DNA of 64,000 bases from a virus, in the IMG/VR virus record IMGVR_UViG_3300042319_002356, positions 1 through 64,000 of that record. One strand, written 5' to 3'. Shown piece after piece: positions 1 through 59,491 of this stretch. The notes beneath the pieces were generated by a model that did no database searches, was not told the origin of the DNA, and worked only from the letters and a program-made list of their open reading frames with translations. Each line of letters begins with the position of its first letter. The first letter of the stretch is position 1. The position numbers and the translations under genes are program-made.

Positions 1-3000
1 AATCGCTCTCACGTATATTCTGTTGCAAGTTCATATACAATCACAATCAGTGGTGATGTAACAGGGTTTAGATTTAATAATACAGGGTCAAGATTAGAAA
101 TACGGGAAATACTAAAATGGGGACCATTACGTGGACTTAACAACTCAAATGCCACAATGTTTTTTGGTTGTAGTAACTTAGTATTAACTGGAGTTACGGA
201 TACTCCTGATTTGGTAGGTATAACTGCAACCACAAGTATGTTCAGAAGTTGTGGTATCACAACTATAAGTGGTGTCAGTGGTTGGGATACTAGTAGTGTG
301 ACTAATATGTCTTTCATGTTTAATGGTGCGACGACATTTAATGACAATATTGGTTCTTGGAATGTTTCAGGTGTTACAGATATGGCATACATGTTTGGTA
401 GTACCTCCCAATTTAATAACGGAGGTAGCCCCTCCATTAGTGGATGGAATGTTAGTAACGTAACTAACATGGAGTCAATGTTCCAATATGGTAACTTTAA
501 CCAAGATATTGGAGCGTGGGATGTTGGTAATGTCACAAACATGCAACAGATGTTCCGACACCAAAGTAATATAGCTGGAACTGGATTTAACAATGGAGGT
601 AGTCCTTCTATTAGTGGATGGAATGTTAGTAATGTTACTAACATGATTGAGATGTTTAGGGGTTCTAAAATTTTCAATCAACCTATTGGAAATTGGAACG
701 TGTCAAACGTAACAAACATGTTTGGCATGTTCTCTACCCAAGGAACTGCTCAACAACCATTTAATCAAAATATTGGTGCTTGGAATGTTTCTGCTGTGAC
801 GGATATGAGACAAATGTTTAGTTCTGCATTATCTTTCAACAACGGAGGAAGTCCATCAATTAGTGGATGGAATGTTAGTAATGTTACACTTATATCCCTA
901 ATGTTCAATAGCGCTAGGGCGTTTAACCAACCGATTGGAAGTTGGGATATGAGAAACAAGTCGGATTTAACAAGAATGTTAGACGATGCTAGATTATTCA
1001 ATCAAGACGTTGGTTCTTGGAATGTTTCAGGTGTCACTAACATGAGTGGATTATTCCGAGACACACATGCTTTTAACAACGCTAGTAGCCCGTCCATAAG
1101 TGGGTGGAACGTTAGTAATGTTACCAATATGAGTAGTATGTTTGGAAATACTGATGGTATAGCCCAACCATTTAATCAACCAATTGGAAGCTGGAATGTA
1201 TCAAGTGTTCAAAACATGTCTGAAATGTTTAATAGATGTACCTCATTCAACCAAGATTTAAGTTCTTGGAATGTTTCGAGTGTCACAAACATGTTTGCCA
1301 TGTTTTATGTTGCGAGCTCATTTAACCAAAACATCTCAAGCTGGAATACGAGTGGTGTTACAAATATGTCTCTTATGTTTGGGTTTGCCAGTTCATTTAA
1401 CCAAAATATTGGTTCTTGGAATACTGGTAACGTAACCTTGATGAATAGTATGTTCCAATCCGCAACCGCATTTAATCAAGATATATCAAATTGGAATACT
1501 GCAAAGGTTACAAACATGGGTAACATGTTTAGTAATGCGGTTGCGTTTAATGGGTATGTCGGGACAAATGGTGATAAGTGGAATGTCTCAGGTGTTACGG
1601 ATATGAGAGGAATGTTCTCAGGAGCTTCAGCCTTCAACAATAGTGGTACTGCGGGTACAAGTACATTTCCTTTAACAGGTTGGAACGTATCAAACGTCAC
1701 AGGTTTAGGAATGGTTTCGATGTTCCAAAATGCGTCTTCATTTAACCAAGACGTATCGAATTGGGATACTAGAAAGATAACAAGTTTAGCTAACATGTTT
1801 AATGGTGCAACATTGTTTAATCAATCAGTTGCAACAAATGGTAATATTTGGAATGTCTCAGGCGTTACCGACATGATAGGTACATTTAGTGGTGCGACTG
1901 GGTATACCAACTTAGGACAACCATTAAGTGGTTGGAGTACAAGTAATGTTACCGACATGTCATTTATGTTCGGTAATTCTGCCTTTAACAAATATATTGG
2001 TAATTGGAATACGTCAAATGTAACAACAATGAGGTCAATGTTTTGGTCTGCAACAACATTTAATAATGAAAGTTTACCATTAAGCGGTTGGAACACGACA
2101 AAAGTGACCACCATGAGGTCAATGTTCAATACCGCACAACAATTTAATCAGTATGTTGGTACGAATGGAACAAATTGGGTAACATCGGCAGTTACTGATA
2201 TGCAATTTATGTTTGCAAGTGCGACTAACTTTAATAATGGTGAGGCCGCAGGTCTAAGTAATTTACCACTTACAGGTTGGAATACAAGTAATGTTACTTT
2301 GATGAACAATATGTTTATTGTTGCCCAATCATTTAACCAAAACATCTCAACTTGGGATACTGCTAAAGTGACTAACATGGCCTCCATGTTTAATAATGCA
2401 TTTTTGTTTAACCAAAACGTTGGTAATTGGAACGTATCGGGCGTAACAAATATGCAAGTGATGTTTAATTTTGCAAACTCATTTAATAACGCAGGTAGTC
2501 CTTCCATTAGTGGGTGGAACACTAGTAATGTTACAACCATGTTCCAAATGTTTGCGGCAACACCCTTCAATCAACCACTTACTAATTGGGACACATTAAA
2601 GTTAACTGGTGCAAGTGCGGTCAATCAGATGTTCTATTCTGCAACATCATTCAACCAAAATTTGACAACTACTGGGAATTTTTGGAATATGTCGGGAGCG
2701 ACAAGTCTTAATAGTATGTTTGGTTTGGCCACCTCGTTTAACGGGGATGTTTCTGGGTGGGACACTAGAAAAGTAACCGATTTTATTTCCACGTTTTTTA
2801 GTGCTACGTCATTTAACCAAAATTTAAGTTCATGGGTAATTACAGGAGGTACAAATGGTAGTTTAAATCAATTTTTAAGTTATTCAAATCTATCTCAGAC
2901 AAATTATGATAATACGTTAATTGGATGGTCTGGACAAAACCCTACTAGTAAAACTATAGGTGTTATTGGATTAGTATATTCACCATCACCTTGTCCTGGA

Positions 3001-6000
3001 GGTGATGCAAGAACTTATCTAGACGTACCTAGAGGTTGGACATTTGTCGGTGACATTGCTGGTTGTTGTGGAACATGTACTCCGACACCAACTCCTACAA
3101 TAACTATTACTCCGAGTATTACTCCAACAATTACAGTTACCCCGAGTATTACTCCTACAGTTACCCCAACAATTACAGTTACCCCAACAATTACAGTTAC
3201 CCCGAGTATTACACCTACCATTACACTGACAATTACCCCTTCGGTTACCGTATCACCATCTTCACCAGTCACTGAATGCCGATGTATAACATTTGTTAAT
3301 AATTCTGCGGGACCTGGTTTTACCCCATATACTTATTATGATTGTAGTGGTAATTTAATTGGTGCGGCAGCAACCCCTGGAGAAATATTTAGTGTGTGTG
3401 GTAGTAATCCTGTAGTTAGTTCAGTTGAATTATTATACTCAATAGGACAACCATGTTTTGGAGGAGAATGTGTTCCGGGTGATGGATGTCTTTGTACTAC
3501 AATCATAATATCTGAGGTTGATTTAAATAACTCAGATACTGATGCGGTTTATGTGTCGTATTTTAACTGTCACGATGGATTAGTTGAATCTTCAGCAATT
3601 ACTGTTGCTGGTGAATATTATATATGTAACAATGCAGTATCAACATTTAATTTATATGGTATTGGTTTACTACTTGATTACACTAATGAAGGAATACCTT
3701 ATAATAATAAAGAAAATCCTAATTTCTTCTATTCTGAATATAGTATTAGTGTTAGTTCTTGTTTACTTGATGAAGACTGTGACCCTTGTTTTAATGAGTT
3801 GTCAATTGATTTTGAATATGTTTGTCAAGAATTATTTCCCACACCAACTCCTTCACCTTCGGCTTCTCCAATAATTGAGGCAAATTGTACCGTATTTTTT
3901 AATGAGGGTACTGATGTTTACACCTATGATTTATTAACAAATACCTCAACATTGTTAACAGTACCTGGTGCTGGTCCATCATACATAGGGGATATTGCAA
4001 ATACCACTACAAAATTGTGGTTAATGAATAGTAATAGTGTTATGGAATGGGATATTACTTTATCTCCATTTAGTGCGACATATAATAGAACTATTACATT
4101 CCCTAATTTTTATGGACCAGGATTATTTGCTATTAACAATACTACTTTATTGGCCGTTGATTCAACCACAACCCCAAATACAGTTGTTACTTTAGATATT
4201 ACCACTACTACCGCAGTACAAACCGCACTATTTACTATGTTACCTGGCAGGAGTGTTGCTGGAGACATCTTAAAAACAAATAATAATAAGATATTAATTA
4301 CTAATTATGGTGTCGGCTCAAATGCTTACATCACCCAATATGATATATCAGGCAGTGTTGAATTTGATAAAAATATAACATCTAGCTCACAGTCCCCTTA
4401 TGGTATGTTTGTGAAGAATGGGCAGATTTATATAATGGATTTTTTTGGTGGTGTATTTCTTATTCAGACATCTTCCCCATATAATTTAACATTAGTTGCG
4501 TCATCAGGACATTACCCTTATGGTGCGTCACAAGACCCTGGATGTGCAAATATTAGTTTTCAGCCGAATGTAACCCCAACACCTACACCCACACCTTCCA
4601 TTACTCCAACTAATACATTACCACCTAATTTAGCGGTTAGTTCTTACTTCTATTGTGATTTAATTACACCTACTCCTACTGTTACTATTAGTCAAACACC
4701 ATTCCAAACCCAAACCCCAACTTTAACACCTGGGTTAAGTCCAAGTGTCACACCTACAAATACTTTAACTCCATTCTTTACTCAGACACCTTCCGTCACT
4801 CCTGACTGTATCAATATTAGTTTTGAATATGTTTGTGAGTTCTTAACACCAACACCTACCCCAACTGTTACCATTACTCCGTTCTTAACTCCTTCAGTTA
4901 CTCCGACAAATACTGTACCCCCAAACATTAATGGTAGTTTCTATTTTTATTGTGATTTAATTACACCTACCCCTACTGTTAGTGTGACTCAAACTCCACT
5001 CCAAACACAGACATCTACCCCCACACCAGGATTGAGTCCATCTGTTACACCAACTAATACTTTAACTCCTTTTTTTACACAGACCCCGAGTCAAACTCCA
5101 AATTGTATTACAATTAGTTTTGAATATGTTTGTGAAAATTTAACGCCTACACCTACCCCGACTGTAACATTAACTCCATTTATTACTCAATCAGTTACTC
5201 CTACGAATACCTTACCACCAAACTTGGGAGTGTCAAGTTATTTCTATTGTAATTTGGCAACCCCAACAGTGACTCCATCACTATCAATTTCAGTTACCCC
5301 AACAATAACACCATCTGTAACTGCGAATGCTTGTTTCTGTTATGATGTAATTGTTACACAACACGATATTGATAGCGCAAGTGGTAACACAAATCCTGTT
5401 GCAAATGGGAGAGTTACGGTTATCTATTATGATTGTGATGAAATTCCAAGACCATTTTCAGTAACTTCTGCTGGTATATACACAATTTGTAATAAAGCAT
5501 CAGAAACATTTGACAACTTAGGTATTGAAGTATTCATTACCTACACACAAAATAATGAGGGTTATAATAATTTAGATGACCCACAATTATTTACTAGCCA
5601 GTACATTACGGAGTATTCATCTTGTACTCAAGATGGTGATTGTGTCCCAATTACCCAAACTCCGACACCTACAGCAACTCTGACACCAGGTTTAAGTTTG
5701 ACCCCAACGGTAACCCCAACCCTAACCCCGTTTTTTACCCCAAGTCCATCACCTGATTGTTCCGGAGTTGCTATATCATTTGAGTATGTTTGTGAGTTCT
5801 TAACCCCGACTCCAACCCCCACTCAGACATTAACCCCGTTCTTAACTCCTTCGGTTACTCCGACACAAAGTATTCCTGTTAATTTAGGTGTTAGCTCTTA
5901 TTTCTATTGTGATTTAGTAAGTCCAACTCCTACGGTTAGTGTGACTGAAACTCCATTCCAAACACAAACTCCAACCCTAACACCTGGTTTAAGTCCAAGT

Positions 6001-8931
6001 GTCACACCTACGAACACATTAACACCATTCTTTACCCAAACACCAAGCCAGACCTCTGATTGTATTAATATTAGTTTTGAGTATGTTTGTGAGTTTTTAA
6101 CTCCAACCCCCACTCCAACTCAGACATTAACCCCGTTCTTAACTCCTTCGGTTACTCCGACACAAAGTTTACCTGTAAATTTAGGTGTTAGCTCTTATTT
6201 CTATTGTGATTTAGTTACATTGACCCCAACAGTCAGTGTGACTGAAACACCTTTTCAAACTCCAACACCAACTCTTACACCAGGATTAAGTCCGAGTGTT
6301 ACTCCGACAAATACTTTAACACCTTTCTTCACACAGACCCCAAGCCAGACCCCTGATTGTATTAACATTAGTTTTGAATATGTTTGTGAGTTCTTAACAC
6401 CAACACCTACGACAACTGTAACATTAACTCCATTCCTGACACCATCGGTAACTCCCACAAATACATTACCACCAAACTTGGCGGTTAGTGTTTATATGTA
6501 TTGTGAGTTAGTTACCCCAACTCAAACTCCGACTCAAACTGTTACACCATCTATTACCCCATCAATTACCCCAACCATTAGTGTTACACCAACAATTCCT
6601 GATGATTGTATTGTTATTGATTTTGAGTTTATTTGTGAGTTTTTAACTCCAACACCTACCCCTACACAGACACTAACTCCGTTCTTAACGCCATCTATTA
6701 CTCCGACAAATACATTACCGCCTAATTTGGCGGTTAGTTCTTACTTCTATTGTGATTTGGTAAGTCCTACACCTACTGTTAGTGTAACTGAAACGCCTTT
6801 CCAAACTCCGACACCAACTCTTACACCTGGTTTAAGTCCAAGTGTTACTCCGACAAATACTTTAACTCCATTCTTTACCCAAACACCAAGCCAGACCCCT
6901 GATTGTATTAATATTAGTTTTGAATATGTTTGTAGTGATTTGACCCCAACCCCAACTGCAACTGTAACGGTAACTCCGTTCTTGACCCCATCTCCAACCC
7001 CTACCGTTACAGTTGCTCCTTTCTTAGCGGTTAGTTCTTATTTTTATTGTGTTAACGTAACACTAACCCCAACAGTAACACCATTCTTAACACAGACACC
7101 GACATTAACACCATTTGCGACTCCTTCAGTTACTCCTAACTGTATTGTTATTAATTTTGAATACGTTTGTAGTAATTTAACTCCTACTCCGACTCCAACT
7201 CAGACCTTAACTCCGTTCTTAACACCATCTATTACTCCGACAAATACCTTACCACCAAACTTGGGAGTGTCAAGTTATTTCTATTGTATTAATGTTACAT
7301 TAACCCCAACATTGACACCATTCTTAACTCCAACTCCAACATTAACACCATTTGCAACACCATCAGTTACACCTGATTGTATTAACATTGTCTTTGAGTA
7401 TGTTTGTGATAATTTAACTCCAACTCCAACACCAACTCAAACTTTAACACCGTTCTTAACACAAACCCCCACACCTACAACGACATTGGCTCCTAATTTA
7501 GGTGTTAGTTCTTACTTCTATTGTGATTTGGTTACTCCTACGGTAACCCCTACACCAACTCAAACTTTACCTGACATTTATTGGTTTAGTGGATGTTGTG
7601 AAATTAATAACATTACGTTTGGTTTATATAACTTACCAGTATCTGTAATTGTTGGTGAAGTTTACTACGTTGAAATTGAGGGAGTATTCTCGGGATGCTC
7701 AACAGTAATTACAACAGGAACCGGAGGAATTTATGGAAATTCAATATTGGTAAATTATACTAATTGTGTTGAATGTATTACTAACAATCCTTGTATCCCT
7801 ATTCCAAGTGTAACACCAACCCCAACGGTGACTCAAACTCCAAATTGTATTACAATTAGTTTTGAATATGTTTGTGAAAATTTAACACCTACGCCTACCC
7901 CTACTCAGACATTAACTCCATTCTTAACTCAGACTCCTACACCTACAACAACATTGGCTCCTAATTTAGGAGTTAGTTCTTATTTCTATTGTGATTTAGT
8001 TACTCCGACTCCAACTTTAACACCATTCTTTACATTAACTCCAACACCAACTCCGACAGTTACACTGACTTCATTCTTAACTCCAACACCAACTCTGACA
8101 CAGTTCTTTACCCCTACACCAACAATAACACCATCAGTTACACCTGATTGTATTACAATAAACTTTGAGTATGTTTGTAGTAATTTAACACCAACTCCAA
8201 CACCAACTCAAACATTAACACCATTTTTAACACCATCAATAACACCAACGGAGACACTACCGCCATATTTGAACGTATCTGTTTATTTATATTGTGAGTT
8301 AGTTACCCCAACACCAACACCTAATATTATGACACCAACACCAACACAAACGGCTACGGTGACCCCAACGTTGACTCCTGGACTAACAGGATGTGGGGTT
8401 CACCAGTATTGTGTCCATTTAGGTAATCCTGATTACGACGGAACATATGTAAACTCGGGATACTATAACGGACATTCTTATTATCTAAACTCAGGAACAA
8501 ATAGTGTAATTTATTACAATAACACTACTTGGTGTGTATCGGATACACTTGGAGGAACTTGTATCCTCTATGGTTCAGTTCCGCCGACATCACCTTGTCC
8601 AAGTTTCTCAAACACTGTATTCAGTGTAGGAGCTTGTCCAACACCTACGCCGACCCCAACTCCATCGGTGACACCTACGTTAACCCCGACTGTGTCACCT
8701 ACTGCGACGTTGACCCCAACTCCGGCAGTTACGACATCTCCAACTACTACTCCGACAGTTACCCCAACAGGGACTAATGCTTGTATTGGTGTTCAAGCAT
8801 ATTCAATTGTTGAAGATGTTCCAAATCCGTCTCCGACTCCTACGGTTACTCCAACGTCAACGGTTGGTAAAGTCTCCTTTAATGGTGAAGGTGTTTTTGT
8901 GGTGTTAAACGATACTTTTGTATGTAATTAA
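1..8931 (+). CDS. Giant surface/virion protein (5'-truncated): BspA/DUF285 repeat region followed by Thr-Pro-rich and Cys-containing repeats
   Basis: Frame 1 is open from base 1 ([18 protein letters not shown]...), so the ATG at 157 is probably internal. Dozens of 'FNQxIxxWxVSxVTNMxxMF' DUF285-type repeats run to ~2990, followed by TPTP tracts and Cys modules. Confidence 0.85.
157..2990 (+). repeat. BspA/DUF285 leucine-rich-like coding repeat array
   Basis: Recurrent WNVSxVTNM / FNQ motifs, with periodic longer variants [12 protein letters not shown]. Confidence 0.85.
3787..8300 (+). repeat. Alternating CxxIxFEYVC / NLxVSSYFYC modules separated by Thr-Pro linkers
   Basis: 12 copies of each module counted by eye in the translation, strictly alternating. 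Confidence 0.85.
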
Positions 8932-12036: not shown

Positions 12037-12043
12037 TATTTAT
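12037..12043 (+). promoter_or_regulatory. TATTTAT motif (putative phage late promoter) before the tail-collar-like gene
   Basis: TATTTAT 4 nt before ATG 12048; same spacing at several other genes. Confidence 0.5.
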
Positions 12044-21929: not shown

Positions 21930-22730
21930 ATGAAAGAAAAAAACCAGTCCATTCCGTTCAACCAAGAAGAAATCTACAACTATCTACGCGATTTGAGAAA
22001 GATAGATGTAATGACCCCCGATAGAGAAAGGGAATTATCTAAACAAATGCTTAATCCTGAAACTACGGATTTTGAAAAAAGAAAAATTGAACGAGAACTC
22101 GTTGAAGGTAATTTACGATTTGTAATTACTGTAGCAAAACAATACCAAAATCAAGGGTTAGATTTACCTGATTTGATTGCTGAAGGTAACATTGGATTAC
22201 TTAAAGCAATAAAGAATTTTGATTGGTCTAAAAACTTACGTTTCATATCATACGCTGTATGGTGGGTTAGACAATCAATTCTACAATCTTTGAATGAGAA
22301 CGCAAGAACTATCCGACTTCCAGTAAACGTAGTCCAAGAATTACAAAAGGAAAAAAGACGTGCGGATGAAGGATTGACAGAGATGAGTAGTAGATTCGTT
22401 AATCTTCCCTCAACAATCAGATTAGATAATACGATTAACGAGGAGGGAGATACTTTGGTGGACATTATCATTAATCATGATTCATTGATGCCTGACCATT
22501 CATTTAACAACAACGATGCAATGAAACAAAAGTTAGGTGATATCTTAGGTATTTTAGATGAAAGAGAAAAATGTATTATTGAAGATTATTTCGGACTTTC
22601 AGGTACACCAAGAACTTTAGAAGATATTGGTGAGGATTTTAATCTAACAAAAGAAAGAGTTAGACAAATTAAAGAGAAAGCTTTAAGAAAGTTAAGAAAT
22701 GAATCTGGAATCTTGTTTGATTATCTTTAA
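21930..22730 (+). CDS. RNA polymerase sigma-70 factor, RpoD-like, lacking region 1.1
   Basis: LVEGNLRFVITVAKQY, DLIAEGNIGL, RFISYAVWWVRQSI, TLEDIG...LTKERVRQIKEKALRKLR. Confidence 0.92.
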   Translation: MKEKNQSIPFNQEEIYNYLRDLRKIDVMTPDRERELSKQMLNPETTDFEKRKIERELVEGNLRFVITVAKQYQNQGLDLPDLIAEGNIGLLKAIKNFDWSKNLRFISYAVWWVRQSILQSLNENARTIRLPVNVVQELQKEKRRADEGLTEMSSRFVNLPSTIRLDNTINEEGDTLVDIIINHDSLMPDHSFNNNDAMKQKLGDILGILDEREKCIIEDYFGLSGTPRTLEDIGEDFNLTKERVRQIKEKALRKLRNESGILFDYL

Positions 22731-41052: not shown

Positions 41053-41080
41053 AAACCCCTCACTTTTGAGGGGTTTTTTG
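41053..41080 (+). terminator. Rho-independent terminator upstream of the signalling cassette
   Basis: aaacccctca-cttt-tgaggggttt followed by ttt. Confidence 0.85.
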
Positions 41081-41091
41081 TTTATTTCAAG

Positions 41092-41098
41092 TATTTAT
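41092..41098 (+). promoter_or_regulatory. TATTTAT motif (putative phage late promoter) before the signalling cassette
   Basis: Directly after a terminator, 5 nt before ATG 41104. Confidence 0.5.
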
Positions 41099-41103
41099 CA
41101 AAT

Positions 41104-42201
41104 ATGAAAATAAACACCAAAATCTCTTTACTTTTCAAAACCATATCAAATTTAGTTTTTGGTGAAACAAAAAAAGAAATGTCTGAAACTGATAAGTTTA
41201 TTGACAGAGCGACAATTGTTTCTATGACTGATGAGAAAGGTAGAATTACCTATGTTAATGAAAAGTTTGAAAAGATATCAGGTTATAAATTAGATGAGGT
41301 TAAAGGTAAAGACCACTCAATAGTTAATTCGGGATTACAACCCGATGGGTATTGGAGAAATATGTATAAGACGGTATTGAAGGGTGAGATATGGAATGAT
41401 ATTGTTTGTAATAAAGCAAAAGATGGTAGTCATTACTGGGTTGATACATACATTAGAGCTCGTTTTGATGAGGACGGGAAGTTAGAAGGGTTCTCATCAA
41501 TTAGACAAGATGTTACCAAAATTATGGAACAATCTGTTGAACTAGATAGGAAGAACACCTATTTAGAACACGCTGCCAAGATATTAAGACACGATATGCA
41601 CTCTGGTATTAACACTTATATGCCAAGAGGTCTTAGTTCGTTGGAGAGAAGAATAACTAACGAAGACATTACCAATCTTAAAATTGAAGCCCCACTTAAA
41701 ATGATTAAAGAGGGACTCAAACATTCTCAGAAAGTTTATAGAGGAGTTTATGAGTTTACCAATCTAGTGAAAAAGGATGTGGTTCTTAATAAAGAACAAT
41801 GTAACATCAAGGACATTCTCAAGGACTATTTGTCTTCGACGGCCTACGTCAGTCAGGTAATATTAGATGATAATTTACCATCTGTGGAAGTAAACGAACC
41901 ATTATTTTGTACTGCGGTTGATAACCTTATCCGTAATGGATTAAAGTATAATGACTCAGACACCAAGTTTGTTAAAATATATTCTGATGAAAACTCAATT
42001 TACATTCAGGATAATGGTAGAGGTATCACTCAGGAAGATTTTGAACACCTATCTAAACCATATGTAAGAAAAGAGGGACAGAAAGAAAGTGGAAGTGGAT
42101 TAGGATTGAACATTTGTGTTGCAATTCTTAAAGAACACGGGTTTGAAATTACCTGTGAGAAAAATGAAACTGGAACTAAAATGAAAATTAAATACAAATG
42201 A
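41104..42201 (+). CDS. Cytoplasmic PAS-domain sensor histidine kinase
   Basis: PAS/PAC (TDEKGRITYVNEKF...HSIVNSG...NKAKDGSHYWVD), H-box RHDMHSG, N-box NLIRNGLKY, G1 QDNGRGI, G2 GSGLGL. Confidence 0.9.
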   Translation: MKINTKISLLFKTISNLVFGETKKEMSETDKFIDRATIVSMTDEKGRITYVNEKFEKISGYKLDEVKGKDHSIVNSGLQPDGYWRNMYKTVLKGEIWNDIVCNKAKDGSHYWVDTYIRARFDEDGKLEGFSSIRQDVTKIMEQSVELDRKNTYLEHAAKILRHDMHSGINTYMPRGLSSLERRITNEDITNLKIEAPLKMIKEGLKHSQKVYRGVYEFTNLVKKDVVLNKEQCNIKDILKDYLSSTAYVSQVILDDNLPSVEVNEPLFCTAVDNLIRNGLKYNDSDTKFVKIYSDENSIYIQDNGRGITQEDFEHLSKPYVRKEGQKESGSGLGLNICVAILKEHGFEITCEKNETGTKMKIKYK

Positions 42202-42809
42202 AAAAGTTATTATTAATCTGTTTTATGTTAATGTCTTTTGTTGGATATACACAATACCCAATAAAGACAATCTTTAAGGGTGATTCAGTTATTATCTTAA
42301 CCATTGAGCAATCTGAAAAGATTAATGAAATGTTAGATAAAACATCAAAATCTATTAAAGATAGCAATAAAAAAACTAAAGAATATGAATCGGAAATTCA
42401 AAAGTTAAATACCGTATTGAATAACCAAAATGCGTATATTGATAGTTTATCTAATCTTTTATTACAAAGATGGACTTGTAATGAAGACATTTACGATAGC
42501 ATATGGACATGGGCTCTAGGACCTTCAATCATCTACACCATGTATCCTGATGATAGTACGGTTTATGTAATGGACTTATCACATTATTATATGACAACTA
42601 ATGATTTTGGTATAGTAATGGCAAGAATGACAGACAAAGAATATCTTAAATACAAAGCATTTATTTCAAAGTATGGACTTAGTGAGGAAGCGTTTTGGAG
42701 ATTTAGAAATGAGATGAAAGTAAAAAGACTTAATGATGATAAGATGAAAGATAAGAAAGAATGGAAAAGTAAAATGGTTCTTGAAAAGAAAGAGGAGGAA
42801 GAGAAATGA
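42198..42809 (+). CDS. Secreted/periplasmic coiled-coil protein of the signalling cassette
   Basis: Signal peptide MKKLLLICFMLMSFVGYTQ; ATGA coupling on both sides. Confidence 0.7.
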   Translation: MKKLLLICFMLMSFVGYTQYPIKTIFKGDSVIILTIEQSEKINEMLDKTSKSIKDSNKKTKEYESEIQKLNTVLNNQNAYIDSLSNLLLQRWTCNEDIYDSIWTWALGPSIIYTMYPDDSTVYVMDLSHYYMTTNDFGIVMARMTDKEYLKYKAFISKYGLSEEAFWRFRNEMKVKRLNDDKMKDKKEWKSKMVLEKKEEEEK

Positions 42810-44152
42810 GAAATTATTTAATATCTACACTATTTTTAGTTAGTCTTCAATCTTACTCACAAGATACCACAGACTTCTCAATTAAACCTAATTGGGTTAG
42901 TCCAGAAAAAAATCTAGAAGTAATTCAAAAGGATAGTGTATTAAAATCTAATATCATTACTGATGTGATTGATAGAATAATACCTAATTGGGCACCACCC
43001 GAAAAAGTATTTGAACAACCAAAAGAAGAACTTTCACCTGAGGATGTGAAACAATTAGAAGAAGACGTGAAATTCATGTCAGATTTACCACAATCATACA
43101 AACAAGTGTCCAAAGAGGATTTAAAAAATGTTTTGGTTTTGATTGATAATAAAATAGTTCAATTAAAGGCCGAATTGGATGCGTTGTTAAAAGCAAGAAA
43201 TGCTAACCAGGAAGTTATCAAATCAAAACAAAGTACTTTAACGGTATTAGAAAAAGAAAAGAGTATTATCAATTTAACTTTAACTGAAGGTGAATTAAAA
43301 GATGAAAACGGAAATTTAATTGGTCAAAACGATGAGTTAAAGATAGAACAAGATAAACTTAAAAAGTATCTTTATTTTGCTCTCGGTGGAATCGCCTTAC
43401 TTGGATTAATTGTTGCGGTAGTATTACAAAGAAAGAAGATACAAGTTCAGGATGTTGAGATTCAAAATCAACTTGATGAAATTAATAAGAAGAATAGTTA
43501 CTTGGAACACGCTGCGAGAATTATCCGACATGATATGCACTCAGGTATTAACACATATATGCCAAGAGGTATTAGTTCATTAGAGAAAAGATTGACCACT
43601 GAGGACATTCAAAAGTTAAAAATTGAAGGAGCTTTGAAGATGGTTAAAGAAGGTCTTAACCACACCCAACGAGTATATAAAAGTGTATACGAATTTACCA
43701 ATCTTGTTAAACAAAATGTAGTATTAAATAAAACTATGGTTGATGTTAAGGACTTGGTATGGAAATACATTTCACCCAATTCATATAGTTCTCAGGTTGA
43801 GATATCTGATTTAGGTCAATTAGAAGTTAATGAGATTTTATTTTGTAATGCGGTTGAGAACTTAATTAAAAACGGACTAACATATAATGATAGTCAGGAT
43901 AAGAAAGTTAAAATTTATTTGGACGAGGATTATATAATCGTAGAGGATAATGGTAAAGGTTTTTCTCAGAAACAATTTGAGAAACATCTTAAAAAATATG
44001 CGACAAAGAAAGAGTTTAGTGAAGATGAGAAAGGGTTGGGGTTAAACATTTGTGTTGCAATATTAGAAGAACATGGTTATAAACTCTCCTGTGAAAAAAT
44101 TGAGACAGGAACTAAAATGAAAATAAAAATAAAAAAAGAAAAAAATGATTGA
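42806..44152 (+). CDS. Membrane-bound sensor histidine kinase (signal peptide, periplasmic coiled coil, 1 TM)
   Basis: Signal peptide, coiled coil, TM YLYFALGGIALLGLIVAVVL, H-box RHDMHSG, NLIKNGLTY, EDNGKG, GLGL. Confidence 0.88.
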   Translation: MRNYLISTLFLVSLQSYSQDTTDFSIKPNWVSPEKNLEVIQKDSVLKSNIITDVIDRIIPNWAPPEKVFEQPKEELSPEDVKQLEEDVKFMSDLPQSYKQVSKEDLKNVLVLIDNKIVQLKAELDALLKARNANQEVIKSKQSTLTVLEKEKSIINLTLTEGELKDENGNLIGQNDELKIEQDKLKKYLYFALGGIALLGLIVAVVLQRKKIQVQDVEIQNQLDEINKKNSYLEHAARIIRHDMHSGINTYMPRGISSLEKRLTTEDIQKLKIEGALKMVKEGLNHTQRVYKSVYEFTNLVKQNVVLNKTMVDVKDLVWKYISPNSYSSQVEISDLGQLEVNEILFCNAVENLIKNGLTYNDSQDKKVKIYLDEDYIIVEDNGKGFSQKQFEKHLKKYATKKEFSEDEKGLGLNICVAILEEHGYKLSCEKIETGTKMKIKIKKEKND

Positions 44153-44576
44153 TTCAATTTTGTTGGTGGATGATGAAGATTTGTTTCACCTGGTATTTGA
44201 AGATAGTTGTTCGTTGTTGGACATCACTCTATCTTTAAAATCACTGAACTCTGCGGATGAGGCAGCTAAACTATTTGCGGAATGGCAGAAAAATCCAAAC
44301 GGAAGACCTGAATGTGTGTTTGTGGATTTAAATATCATCGGGTCATCTTTTGATGGTATTGAACTTATTAGAAAGATTAACTTTGAGTATGGTAATCACG
44401 TTGTTATTGGTATCATATCCTCAAGTAACGAACCTGAAGAACAGGCAAAGGCAGTTCAAGCAGGTGCTCAATTTTGGATTATTAAGTCAGATGAGATTGA
44501 ACCAAGATTGGAAGAGTTCAAAAAAGATTATGACGGATTTAAAAACAGAACACAATCGTTTAAAGTATATAAGTAA
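44145..44576 (+). CDS. Stand-alone response regulator receiver (CheY-like)
   Basis: ILLVDDED, phosphoacceptor VFVDLN, IISSS, WIIK; no output domain. Confidence 0.88.
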   Translation: MIDSILLVDDEDLFHLVFEDSCSLLDITLSLKSLNSADEAAKLFAEWQKNPNGRPECVFVDLNIIGSSFDGIELIRKINFEYGNHVVIGIISSSNEPEEQAKAVQAGAQFWIIKSDEIEPRLEEFKKDYDGFKNRTQSFKVYK

Positions 44577-45259
44577 TGGTAATTGATAAGAATACAAAGA
44601 AAGAATTGATTGAAATCTTCCAAACTAAAAACATTGGTTTGGAAGGTAATATCATTAAGCTCATTGACCCTGAAGGTGATGAGGAGTTTTCTGAGTATTT
44701 AAAACAATGTGTTGATAAGGACGGAGCAACAAGACGCAAACGACTTGAAATGACTAAGAAAGTCCAAGTTCAAAATGCTGAACTTACCAAATTGAATGAT
44801 GAGAATCAAAGAATGATGGAAGAACTTCAAAATACTTTAACAAGTATTGAAGAACAAAAAAGTCAAATTGAAGCTCAAAATCATGAGTTAATTGAGTGGA
44901 AAAAAGAAAACGAAAAAATAGGCGCCGAACTTGTTGAAGCAATGAAGCAATCGGAACAAGCGAGAGTTATTGCTGAAAACGCAAAGAACGAAGCCGAGAA
45001 CAACTTGGATTTAATTCAAAAGAAAACTCAATTTGAGTTGATAAATAATATTGTTAAGGTTGCCTTATATGTCATCATTGGTGTTGGAGGGATAACTACT
45101 GGAATTTATGTTTATTCTATGTCAATAGGAATGGATACGGACATTATCGGCTCCACTTGGAGTAATATGTTTGGTATTCTATTAACAAATAGTTTCAGTA
45201 TTGTCGGAACAATACTTGGTGTAAAATATGGGACAAGTCCTAACAAAGATGATAAATAA
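44576..45259 (+). CDS. Coiled-coil protein with two C-terminal TM helices
   Basis: Long Q/E/K heptads followed by two hydrophobic helices; TAATG coupling. Confidence 0.75.
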   Translation: MVIDKNTKKELIEIFQTKNIGLEGNIIKLIDPEGDEEFSEYLKQCVDKDGATRRKRLEMTKKVQVQNAELTKLNDENQRMMEELQNTLTSIEEQKSQIEAQNHELIEWKKENEKIGAELVEAMKQSEQARVIAENAKNEAENNLDLIQKKTQFELINNIVKVALYVIIGVGGITTGIYVYSMSIGMDTDIIGSTWSNMFGILLTNSFSIVGTILGVKYGTSPNKDDK

Positions 45260-45277
45260 ACCTAAAAAATAAAAAAA

Positions 45278-45787
45278 ATGAGTAGATTAAAAAAAATGTT
45301 ATTTGGAGAAACACCTTATGTGAAGGTGGAAGATAAAAATCGTTTCTATTATATGTTGCAACAAATGCAAGCTAATAGATGGAAGATTACAGGGATTGTA
45401 TTGTTCTTGTTCTTCTTCATAATTTTTGGTATCAATATGGCAGTAATGTTCAACATTGAAATTGCTGAAAACTGGAAGGAGATGTTATTAATCCTTTTGG
45501 GTGCTTTTGTTGGTAACCTTAATAAAGTTGTGGATTATTGGTTTAACTCTGAAGATAGAGATAAAATGTTAATCCAAAAGGTTGACGAGGAAGACGGAAG
45601 TAGTTTATCCAACGTAAGTGAATTCCCAACAGCTCCAAGACCTCCACAAGAACCAATTATTATTGTTAAAAAAGAAGAAGTTGTTTCTGAACCTGAACCA
45701 ATGGTTTATGAAGAACCACTTCCATATGAGGAACCTTTGGCCGATGATGGATATGAAACTCCACCTTCAGATGAAGAAAATATCTAA
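45278..45787 (+). CDS. 2-TM membrane protein (holin-like) with acidic Pro-rich tail
   Basis: TM1 ITGIVLFLFFFIIFGINMAVMF; TM2 MLLILLGAFVGNLNKVVDYWF. Confidence 0.65.
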   Translation: MSRLKKMLFGETPYVKVEDKNRFYYMLQQMQANRWKITGIVLFLFFFIIFGINMAVMFNIEIAENWKEMLLILLGAFVGNLNKVVDYWFNSEDRDKMLIQKVDEEDGSSLSNVSEFPTAPRPPQEPIIIVKKEEVVSEPEPMVYEEPLPYEEPLADDGYETPPSDEENI

Positions 45788-45795
45788 AAAAAAAG

Positions 45796-45824
45796 AAACC
45801 CGGTTTGATAAATCGGGTTTTTTG
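45796..45824 (+). terminator. Rho-independent terminator closing the signalling cassette
   Basis: aaacccggttt-gat-aaatcgggttt followed by ttt. Confidence 0.8.
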
Positions 45825-57622: not shown

Positions 57623-59491
57623 ATGGGAAAAATAATTGGTATTGATTTGGGAACAACGAATTCGTGTGTTGCCGTAATGGAAGGTTCAGAACCTGTCGTA
57701 ATTACAAACAGTGAAGGTAAAAGAACGACTCCTTCAATCATTGGATTTGCCAGTGATGGTGATAGAAAGATTGGTGACCCTGCAAAACGTCAGGCGGTTA
57801 CTAATCCTGAAAAAACAATTCACTCAATTAAAAGATTTATGGGAACTAGTTACACTGAAAGTAAAGGTGAAGTAAAACGTGTTCCTTATAAAGTTGTTAA
57901 GGGTACTGGTGATACTCCTCGTGTTCAGATTGATGACCGTAAGTTTTCACCACAAGAAATTTCAGCAATGGTTCTTCAGAAGATGAAACAAACTGCTGAG
58001 GATTATTTGGGTACTGAAGTTACTGAAGCGGTCATCACAGTACCAGCATACTTCAACGACGCTCAACGTCAGGCTACAAAAGAAGCTGGTGAGATTGCAG
58101 GTCTTACAGTTAAACGTATTATTAACGAACCAACTGCGGCCGCATTAGCTTACGGACTTGATAAGAAAGGTTCGGATATGAAAGTTGTTGTATTTGACTG
58201 TGGTGGTGGAACTCACGACGTATCAATCTTGGAACTTGGAGATGGTGTGTTTGAAGTATTAGCGACTGATGGTGACACACATTTGGGTGGTGATGACTTT
58301 GATAATGCAATCATTGACTGGTTGGTTAAAGAATTCCAAGATGAGAATGGATTGGATTTGTCAAAAGACCCAATGGCGTTACAACGTCTTCGTGAAGGGG
58401 CTGAAAAGGCTAAGATTGAATTGTCCTCAACTTCTTCAACTGAAATCAACCTACCATACATTATGCCGGTTGATGGTGTTCCAAAACACTTGGTGAGAAC
58501 TTTATCTAAAGCAAAATTTGAACAACTTGTTGATAAATTGGTCCAAAGAACAATTGAACCATGTAAGAAGGCTATGGAGAACGCAAACCTTACAGTTGGT
58601 GAAATTGATGAAATTATTTTGGTTGGAGGTTCAACTCGTATTCCGGCAATCCAAGAAGCGGTTAAGAAATTCTTTGGTAAGGAACCATCAAAGGGTGTTA
58701 ATCCTGATGAAGTAGTTGCTCTTGGTGCGGCAATTCAAGGTGGAGTATTGGCCGGTGATGTGAAAGATGTATTGTTGTTGGACGTAACTCCACTTTCATT
58801 AGGTATTGAAACAATGGGAGGAGTATTTACAAAGTTGATTGAAGCTAACACGACAATCCCAACCAAGAAATCACAGATATTCTCAACCGCAGTTGATAAC
58901 CAACCATCAGTTGAAATCCACGTATTACAAGGTGAAAGAGCGATGGCTAAAGATAACAGAACCATTGGACGTTTCCACTTGGATGGATTACCACCGGCAA
59001 TGAGAGGAGTTCCACAAATTGAAGTTGTTTTTGACATTGATGCTAACGGTATTATTAATGTGTCAGCAATTGACAAAGGAACTGACAAACAACAAAATAT
59101 TCGTATTGAAGCGTCATCAGGACTTTCAAAAGAAGAAATTGAAAGAATGAAACAAGAAGCTGAAATGAATGCTGAGGCGGACAAGAAAGTTAAAGAAGAT
59201 GCTGAAACAATTAATCAAGCTGACTCAATGATTTTCCAAATTGAAAAATCTTTGAAGGATATTGAAGATAAATTGACGGACGAACAAAAATCAGAAATTA
59301 ATTCTTCATTACAAGAGTTGAAAGATGCTCATTCTACAAAGGATGTTGATAAGATTAAAACCTCAATGGATAAAGTTAACACAACGTTCCAAAGTATCTC
59401 CTCTGACCTATACTCCCAAGGTTCAGGAGAAACAAATGAACAAACAGACCGAGAGGTTAATGATGTTGACTTTGAAGAAGTTAAAGGTTAA
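57623..59491 (+). CDS. dnaK: DnaK (Hsp70)
   Basis: [41 protein letters not shown]. Confidence 0.97.

Follow-up and report, generated by a model that had tools for sequence, protein, structure and literature searches.

We analysed a 64,000-nucleotide stretch of viral DNA (the window), which is the first 64 kb of the 90,767-bp IMG/VR virus record IMGVR_UViG_3300042319_002356, and examined in it a group of six genes between positions 41,053 and 45,824 that encodes a putative two-component phosphorelay. An earlier note on this DNA had described the six genes as one self-contained circuit acting on membrane proteins. All of them lie on the plus strand. The first, g1 (41104..42201, 365 amino acids, aa), encodes a soluble histidine kinase that has a single PAS domain, of the FAD type, followed by a predicted DHp and a CA domain; g2 (42198..42809, 203 aa) encodes a secreted protein with a signal peptide; and g3 (42806..44152, 448 aa) encodes a second kinase with a periplasmic coiled-coil region and one transmembrane (TM) helix. 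They are followed by g4 (44145..44576, 143 aa), a single-domain receiver, g5 (44576..45259, 227 aa), a coiled-coil protein whose C-terminus forms a TM hairpin, and g6 (45278..45787, 169 aa), an adjacent, independent membrane protein. The successive junctions from g1 to g5 overlap by 4, 4, 8, and 1 nt, and 18 nt separate g5 from g6. On the same strand, a terminator-like hairpin at 41053..41076 (10-bp stem with 5 GC pairs, T tail) closes the upstream unit and another at 45793..45823 (14-pair stem, T tail) closes the transcription unit, with no hairpin of comparable strength between the two. The earlier description was therefore correct as to the six open reading frames, the overlaps among the first five, and both flanking terminators. 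A TATTTAT motif at 41092..41098 on the plus strand, 12 nt before the g1 ATG, is a candidate phage-specific promoter element.

Comparison with related loci separated these six genes into a conserved unit and sub-lineage-specific or independent neighbours. The receiver and g5 occur together in 100 viral or metagenome-assembled genome (MAG) loci, forming ~50 clusters which are phylogenetically related, so that counts taken over them are not independent; the gap between the two genes is at most 48 nt in nearly all loci, and three cases have other genes inserted. In every one of the 57 more distant viral loci that we gathered by a search from a distant receiver, a kinase is followed by a receiver (67–87% identical) and then by a g5 homologue (33–64% identical), and g2, g3, and g6 are absent from these loci except in two close relatives. 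Receiver and g5 are retained while sensor domains and kinase number vary, and the module is located in many unrelated genomic contexts, with no candidate soluble partner conserved beside it. The conserved unit is thus composed of the kinase or kinases, the receiver, and g5, three of the six genes, and g2 together with g3 is the addition of a sub-lineage. The idea of six genes as one conserved circuit was not upheld, with g2 and g3 confined to one sub-lineage and g6 independent, and the reading made from a single genome is corrected accordingly; in contrast, the tight tie between the receiver and the coiled-coil, two-TM protein g5 held by synteny across ~100 loci. The finding is also broad, with the module in ~100 loci and thousands of metagenomic homologues of g5.

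The cores of the two kinases are paralogous (61% identity over 224 aa). Pfam recognised PAS (2e-11) and HATPase_c (2.7e-16) in g1 and HATPase_c (6.5e-12) in g3. The CA domain carries the N (NLIRNGLKY), G1 (DNGRGI), and G2 (GSGLGL) boxes of a GHKL ATP-binding domain, all of which align to HK853, and an invariant stretch (...ILRHDMHSGINTY...) lies at the expected distance upstream of it. When the HK853 alignment was extrapolated, His260 of that kinase fell at about H163 of g1, within RHDMHSGINTY; Pfam HisKA, searched with a threshold of E ≤ 0.1, gave no match to the DHp region of g1 or g3. Among solved structures, the g1 PAS domain is best matched by those of MmoS (PAS-A, Methylococcus; 3ewk, 9e-31), Aer (Escherichia coli; 8dik, 3.6e-20) and NifL (PAS1, Azotobacter; 2gj3, 4e-10). 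The NifL model TIGR02938 also matches region 10–129 of g1 (8e-19); this score does not reach the cut-off set for the whole protein, as a single domain would not be expected to. By sequence, this PAS domain belongs to the flavin-PAS subgroup; it would be expected to bind FAD, and redox or energy sensing appears to be the most likely input of g1.

In relatives, two PAS domains, PAS-A of the FAD type and PAS-B, follow a TM hairpin in the first kinase. The g1 kinase of the window has lost the hairpin and PAS-B and is cytoplasmic for that reason, the same short form being found in L003 at 96% identity. The description of g1 as a cytoplasmic PAS kinase was right, with the qualification that this state results from the loss of parts that relatives keep. 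Its FAD-type domain is fused directly to the kinase core, unlike that of the relatives, which stands after the TM hairpin and before the second PAS domain. Other lineages have the hairpin and PAS-B only, or a 313-aa kinase made of little beyond a TM hairpin and the core, and some have an unrelated second, cytoplasmic kinase. The g3 kinase has a signal-peptide-like start, a periplasmic coiled-coil region of ~165 aa and, by hydropathy, one TM helix at 189–207. Its companion g2, which was found only together with a g3-type kinase, consists of a signal peptide, a conserved YPIKTIFKGDS motif, and a coiled coil; it matched no family in Pfam or NCBIfam, and its AlphaFold2 (AF2) model, with a predicted local distance difference test (pLDDT) score of 51, was unusable.

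The g4 protein is recognised by the Pfam Response_reg model (4e-9; 37 bits against a cut-off of 30.2). It has the acidic pocket, the phosphorylatable aspartate, the serine and the lysine of a receiver, and these residues (D9, D10, D61, S92, and K114) are invariant in the alignment of its relatives; D61 and K114 are invariant across the wider receiver family as well. The receiver domain spans residues 5–115 and is followed only by a conserved tail of ~28 aa ending in FKxYK, so that g4 is a single-domain receiver with no output domain. The prediction of a phage-borne two-component system whose receiver lacks an output domain was thus borne out. Only 190 relatives were found at E ≤ 1e-3 among 1.84 billion representatives, the best solved relative is a Cytophaga regulator (9e-6), and more distant stand-alone receivers share 35–51% identity; scans of viral and metagenome contigs for such distant receivers returned nothing useful. 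By its sequence, g4 is divergent from cellular receivers. Phosphotransfer from both g1 and g3 to Asp61 of g4 would be expected.

To place the receiver among cellular organisms, we scanned its alignment against one genome each of 185,579 species. There were seven close matches, all in MAGs, distributed over six phyla. Most of them lie on short contigs that also carry g5, and those with g5 are probably mis-binned phage. The exception is L145 (VGMW01000001.1), a 967-kb contig of a Bacteroidetes MAG, on which two tandem PAS kinases stand beside a receiver that shares 65% identity with g4; behind the receiver lies a gene for a different 227-aa protein, and g5 is lacking. This locus could be a source or a recipient of the phage genes. 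The receiver was found in none of 400 other Bacteroidota genomes at E ≤ 1e-10. The suspicion that the operon might be a common chromosomal Bacteroidota locus was not confirmed, the receiver being almost absent from cellular genomes.

Two TM helices were identified in g5 by hydropathy, at 159–177 and 198–216. In the AF2 model (pLDDT 79.7, and above 90 at residues 60–130), the N-terminus forms a small helical domain, residues 36–184 form one long helix, and the C-terminus forms the TM hairpin. The relatives are 176–255 aa long and differ in the length of the coiled coil. Hardly any variation is seen in an N-terminal motif (LEGNI-x-KL) and in the second TM helix, in which small and polar residues abound. 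We found 4516 homologues, none of them named and none with a Pfam domain, and in the ESM Atlas the g5 clusters are unnamed and 96–100% viral; judged from these sequences, the family appears to be essentially all viral. Because of the coupled junction with the receiver gene and of the conservation pattern, in which the N-terminal motif and the second TM helix stand out, g5 is the best candidate partner of g4. A predicted complex of the receiver with g5 residues 1–100 scored 0.60, as against 0.56 for the control, which speaks neither for nor against binding. A multi-copy gene family whose products start with MKITRKQLRQL was also noted around g5: its members separate the receiver from g5 in two lineages, and in a third they form a tandem array next to the module (L095:5429-6196, L086:5429-6975, L093:6350-9100).

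Unlike g5, g6 is independent of the module. A search with g6 reached 290 viral contigs, and among 84 loci that were fetched, 35 have kinase-receiver genes upstream and 49 are without the module. Four g6-bearing genomes that are 92–100% complete have no receiver in searches of the whole records and, conversely, a complete 297.9-kb genome with direct terminal repeats has the module and no g6. Since each occurs without the other in complete or near-complete genomes, the two are independent, and g6 counts as a core gene of this phage clade in its own right. The protein consists of a conserved N-terminal part of ~115 aa and a variable acidic tail rich in Pro and Glu. Of the two TM helices that had been attributed to it, the first (40–58) is strong and the second (69–87) weak by hydropathy. 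It belongs to no family in Pfam, PHROGs, or NCBIfam, with a weak match only to phrog_38564, for which no function is assigned there, and in the ESM Atlas it occurs only in unnamed viral clusters. The gene stands directly after the second lysin in seven loci and directly before the endolysin in L027 and L029; it is at most 200 nt from a lysin in 9 loci and at most 2.5 kb in 27 of the 84. Because of this closeness to lysin genes in many relatives, g6 is by synteny a candidate holin, a membrane protein of the lysis cassette.

The module itself is often found near lysis genes. The relatives encode an endolysin with GH19 and PG_binding_1 domains and a second, endolysin-like protein (phrog_3000/33083). 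In 12 clusters, the distance from the module to a lysin is at most 1.7 kb, and at least five arrangements occur: module, g6, endolysin; module, small TM protein, endolysin, second lysin; endolysin, second lysin, module; module, endolysin; and second lysin, TM proteins, module. Another seven clusters adjoin g6, a gene that is also found next to lysins in phages lacking the module, so that in total ~19 of the ~50 clusters are next to a lysin or g6. Lysin adjacency concerns about a quarter of the clusters, as compared with ~3% by chance according to our own rough estimate for a genome of ~270 kb. The second lysin and the small membrane genes of the relatives have no homologues in the window or in the whole record. 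This link between the module and lysis is circumstantial and suggestive, and control of lysis timing by the module is plausible given an adjacency that is frequent but not universal. In one relative (L012:8151-9121), three small membrane proteins follow the GH19 endolysin (L012:7318-8154), and the genes of the last two (108 aa with an N-terminal TM helix, and 146 aa with a signal peptide) overlap by ~80 nt in a spanin-like arrangement.

Taken together, we tentatively favour, with doubt still slightly outweighing belief, a phage many-to-one two-component module with a membrane output, probably the timing or inhibition of lysis. Sensor kinases with an invariant putative DHp H-box and varied sensor parts would feed one receiver. 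In the window, g1 would read redox or energy state via its FAD-type PAS domain and g3 would sense through its periplasmic ectodomain together with the secreted companion g2, and both would phosphorylate Asp61 of g4. This phosphorylation may alter the contact of g4 with the cytoplasmic part of g5, and the altered contact would change the assembly of the g5 hairpin in the membrane. As the fixed output of the module, g5 would be anchored in the inner membrane by its C-terminal hairpin and expose its N-terminal domain and long coiled coil to the cytoplasm; the result might be control of a membrane permeabilisation step, through which lysis is timed or inhibited. Transcription of the module and of the holin candidate g6 would start at a common phage-type promoter. 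The contact between receiver and g5 and its effect on the membrane or on lysis are what we infer from gene order and conservation. A bolder version, in which freshwater jumbo phages, as a widespread group, time lysis by a phosphorelay of their own, appears unlikely to us. In it, the FAD-PAS kinase would read the energy status of the infected host, a second kinase would monitor the periplasm in some lineages, and the phosphorylated receiver would turn g5, as a new type of holin or antiholin, on or off; if this were true, it would be the first lysis clock of a phage to be gated by phosphorylation.

Several observations weigh against a lysis-directed membrane output through g5. Pfam, PHROGs, and NCBIfam contain neither a holin family nor any other that g5 matched, and a Foldseek search of the g5 model against the PDB returned nothing at E ≤ 0.001. 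At 227 aa, g5 exceeds typical holins: it has the two TM helices of a class II holin or pinholin but not the size (~65–150 aa), and carries in addition a long predicted cytoplasmic coiled coil. No recognisable lysin lies within 4–5 kb in ~30 of the ~50 clusters, and there is no endolysin homologue in the 90.8-kb record, which is itself 31% complete. Lysis-gene neighbourhoods are common sites of accessory genes, and adjacency there may reflect co-expression and not function. The shared ancestry of the loci also limits what can be drawn from their number. Finally, the receiver is far more conserved (67–96% identity) than g5 (33–85%) or the kinases, which could reflect an additional or different partner, for example a host protein.

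This last point leads to an explanation that we consider rather unlikely but well conceivable, in which the target of the receiver is a soluble host or phage protein and g5 is merely a membrane anchor, a scaffold, or a co-transcribed gene. The receiver would then act as a ClpXP adaptor like CpdR or RssB, engage in cross-talk with host two-component systems or regulators of type IX secretion (T9SS) and gliding, or serve as a phosphate sink. Besides the higher conservation of the receiver, such a target is supported by its C-terminal tail, which is common to the wider family of stand-alone receivers, by the kinase-kinase-receiver arrangement without g5 on the Bacteroidetes chromosome contig, and by the ClpP-like protease and the proteins with T9SS sorting domains that the phage encodes. 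Yet none of the ~100 phage loci has the receiver without a g5 behind it, their contexts differ widely, and the junction is usually coupled, and no soluble candidate is similarly conserved beside the module; since the linkage holds across so many loci and contexts, a functional tie between receiver and g5 is hard to avoid. If g5 is indeed the output, its purpose might still lie elsewhere than in lysis, in superinfection exclusion, in the maintenance or dissipation of the proton-motive force, or in membrane remodelling, with the proximity of lysis genes being only late co-expression at a permissive insertion site. The majority of clusters without a nearby lysin, the many unrelated contexts of the module, and a PAS domain like those of Aer, NifL, and MmoS, which fits general energy sensing, are in line with this view; we nevertheless hold it distinctly unlikely, since lysin adjacency in about a quarter of the clusters is several-fold above the ~3% expected by chance and takes several distinct arrangements.

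That all six genes form one circuit, with g2 co-sensing with the g3 ectodomain and both g5 and g6 as outputs of the receiver, seems improbable: although the window and its closest relatives have the six genes in one terminator-bounded unit and g2 always accompanies a g3-type kinase, g6 occurs without the receiver in the four nearly complete genomes and is missing from the complete module-bearing one, and g2 and g3 are absent from most loci with the module. A bacterial origin of the locus, as a mis-binned contig or a chromosomal operon that no phage carries, is the least credible explanation, very improbable despite the seven receiver matches in MAGs, one of which is on a 967-kb Bacteroidetes contig. 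The DNA comes from a virus record, and the window encodes a T4-type RNA ligase, an SbcC-like nuclease, a ClpP-like head maturation protease, and a sigma factor; relatives include genomes of 271–298 kb with direct terminal repeats; and the scatter of the MAG matches over six phyla on short contigs, mostly with g5, together with the absence of the receiver from the 400 Bacteroidota genomes, speaks for phage.

The module resembles the branched two-component pathways of bacteria, such as CheA-CheY and CckA/ChpT-CpdR, in its HATPase_c kinases with a putative DHp histidine and N, G1, and G2 boxes, in its D-D-D-S-K receiver without an output domain, and in the presence of paralogous kinases with different sensors beside one receiver. 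It differs from them in being carried by a lytic-type jumbo phage, in its atypical H-box (RHDMHSGINTY, not matched by Pfam HisKA), and in its conserved neighbour, a coiled-coil/TM-hairpin protein that occurs only in viruses and belongs to no known family. That the receiver has no conserved neighbour other than this membrane protein points to a new kind of output for single-domain regulators. T4 lysis inhibition (holin T and the antiholins RI and RIII) and the class II holin or pinholin S21 are similar in that the proposed target of a signal is a membrane protein by which lysis is timed; moreover, as in class II holins, there are two TM helices in g5, which abound in Gly, Ser, and Thr, its C-terminus is short and charged, and the module or g6 often adjoins endolysin genes. 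In contrast, g5 has no sequence or fold relation to holin or antiholin families, carries ~150 aa of cytoplasmic coiled coil, and would respond to phosphorylation, a signal that is not known from any holin system.

The decision systems known from phages rely on receptors for peptides or quorum signals, or on antiholins in the periplasm. The arbitrium system AimR/AimP and VqmA-Phi of phage VP882 share with the module a phage-encoded sensor that possibly informs a decision in the infection cycle; however, they are one-component transcription regulators, whereas the module consists of histidine kinases and a receiver with no DNA-binding protein. A kinase-receiver-membrane module owned by phages would represent a new means by which viruses sense the physiology of their host. 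Phage kinase and receiver families with unassigned function are listed in PHROGs (phrog_857, phrog_731), and our literature searches found no description of this kinase-receiver-g5 module. Large freshwater phages with a predicted Bacteroidota host that encode DnaK and DnaJ have been described as 'Moraphages' (PMC12619734), with no mention there of kinases, two-component systems, or response regulators. The window shares with them the freshwater habitat, the signs of a Bacteroidota host, and a phage DnaK gene (57623-59491), and in L035 the gene before the module resembles DnaK by eye.

The promoter motif upstream of g1 has a characteristic position. TATTTAT is not enriched over the window as a whole (31 observed vs 40 expected), but it stands 11–12 nt before the ATG in 10 of the 112 genes of the record, g1 included, where our own estimate of the chance expectation at that spacing is ~0.05 genes. 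The (A)TATTTAT sites are at 12037, 41092, 49620, 59533, and 60143 in the window and at 70487, 76331, 81328, and 87129 in the record. The position is kept upstream of the first kinase in five other loci (L026, L012, L035, L029, and L023), whose upstream sequences otherwise differ. As the distance from the ATG implies almost leaderless transcripts, fixed-position TATTTAT is a candidate phage-specific promoter class giving near-leaderless mRNAs. The motif had been said to mark structural genes; its presence before the cassette was confirmed, and the association with structural genes was checked in part, the genes downstream including those for an M23-peptidase protein and an endonuclease VII-like protein and the remainder having no assigned function. 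Other genes, among them that of the phage sigma factor, are preceded by a Bacteroidota-type TAnnTTTG element. The sigma factor gene (21930-22730; match to phrog_351, RNA polymerase sigma factor, at 7e-52) lies downstream of a host-type TATCTTTG element, and its product is a candidate reader of the TATTTAT promoters.

The locus is part of a lake jumbo phage of Bacteroidota. CheckV rated the record 31% complete, which implies a genome of ~290 kb. The C-terminal sorting domain of the T9SS was found on proteins of related phages and, since this domain indicates a Bacteroidota host, the sequences point to such a host for this phage. One of these proteins (L047:3668-5590, 640 aa) combines a signal peptide, a cohesin domain, and Por_Secre_tail, the T9SS C-terminal sorting domain; its homologues occur in ~40 loci and adjoin g6 in phages without the module, which suggests that the phage exports proteins via the host type IX secretion system. 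Searches of the cassette, g3, and g4 by blastn and tblastn returned no match in a collection of deposited phage genomes from which close records may be missing. A near-identical stretch is contained in at least 15 lake-water DNA sequencing runs; no RNA dataset is listed among the runs with this stretch, and relatives at 90–95% that span g1–g5 are present in a single run with the label RNA-Seq, possibly in fact a DNA run.

Outside the cassette, the window begins with a very large open frame (1-8931, 2976 aa) that is open at its 5' end. The phage DnaK is 64–68% identical to homologues of uncultured huge phages (635–735 kb), and Prevotella phage records likewise match it. In sequencing run X16, one low-depth contig joins 42192 to 44172, so that g1, at its end, runs directly into the beginning of g4 without g2 and g3, and this junction matches the single-kinase form of L007 and L023.

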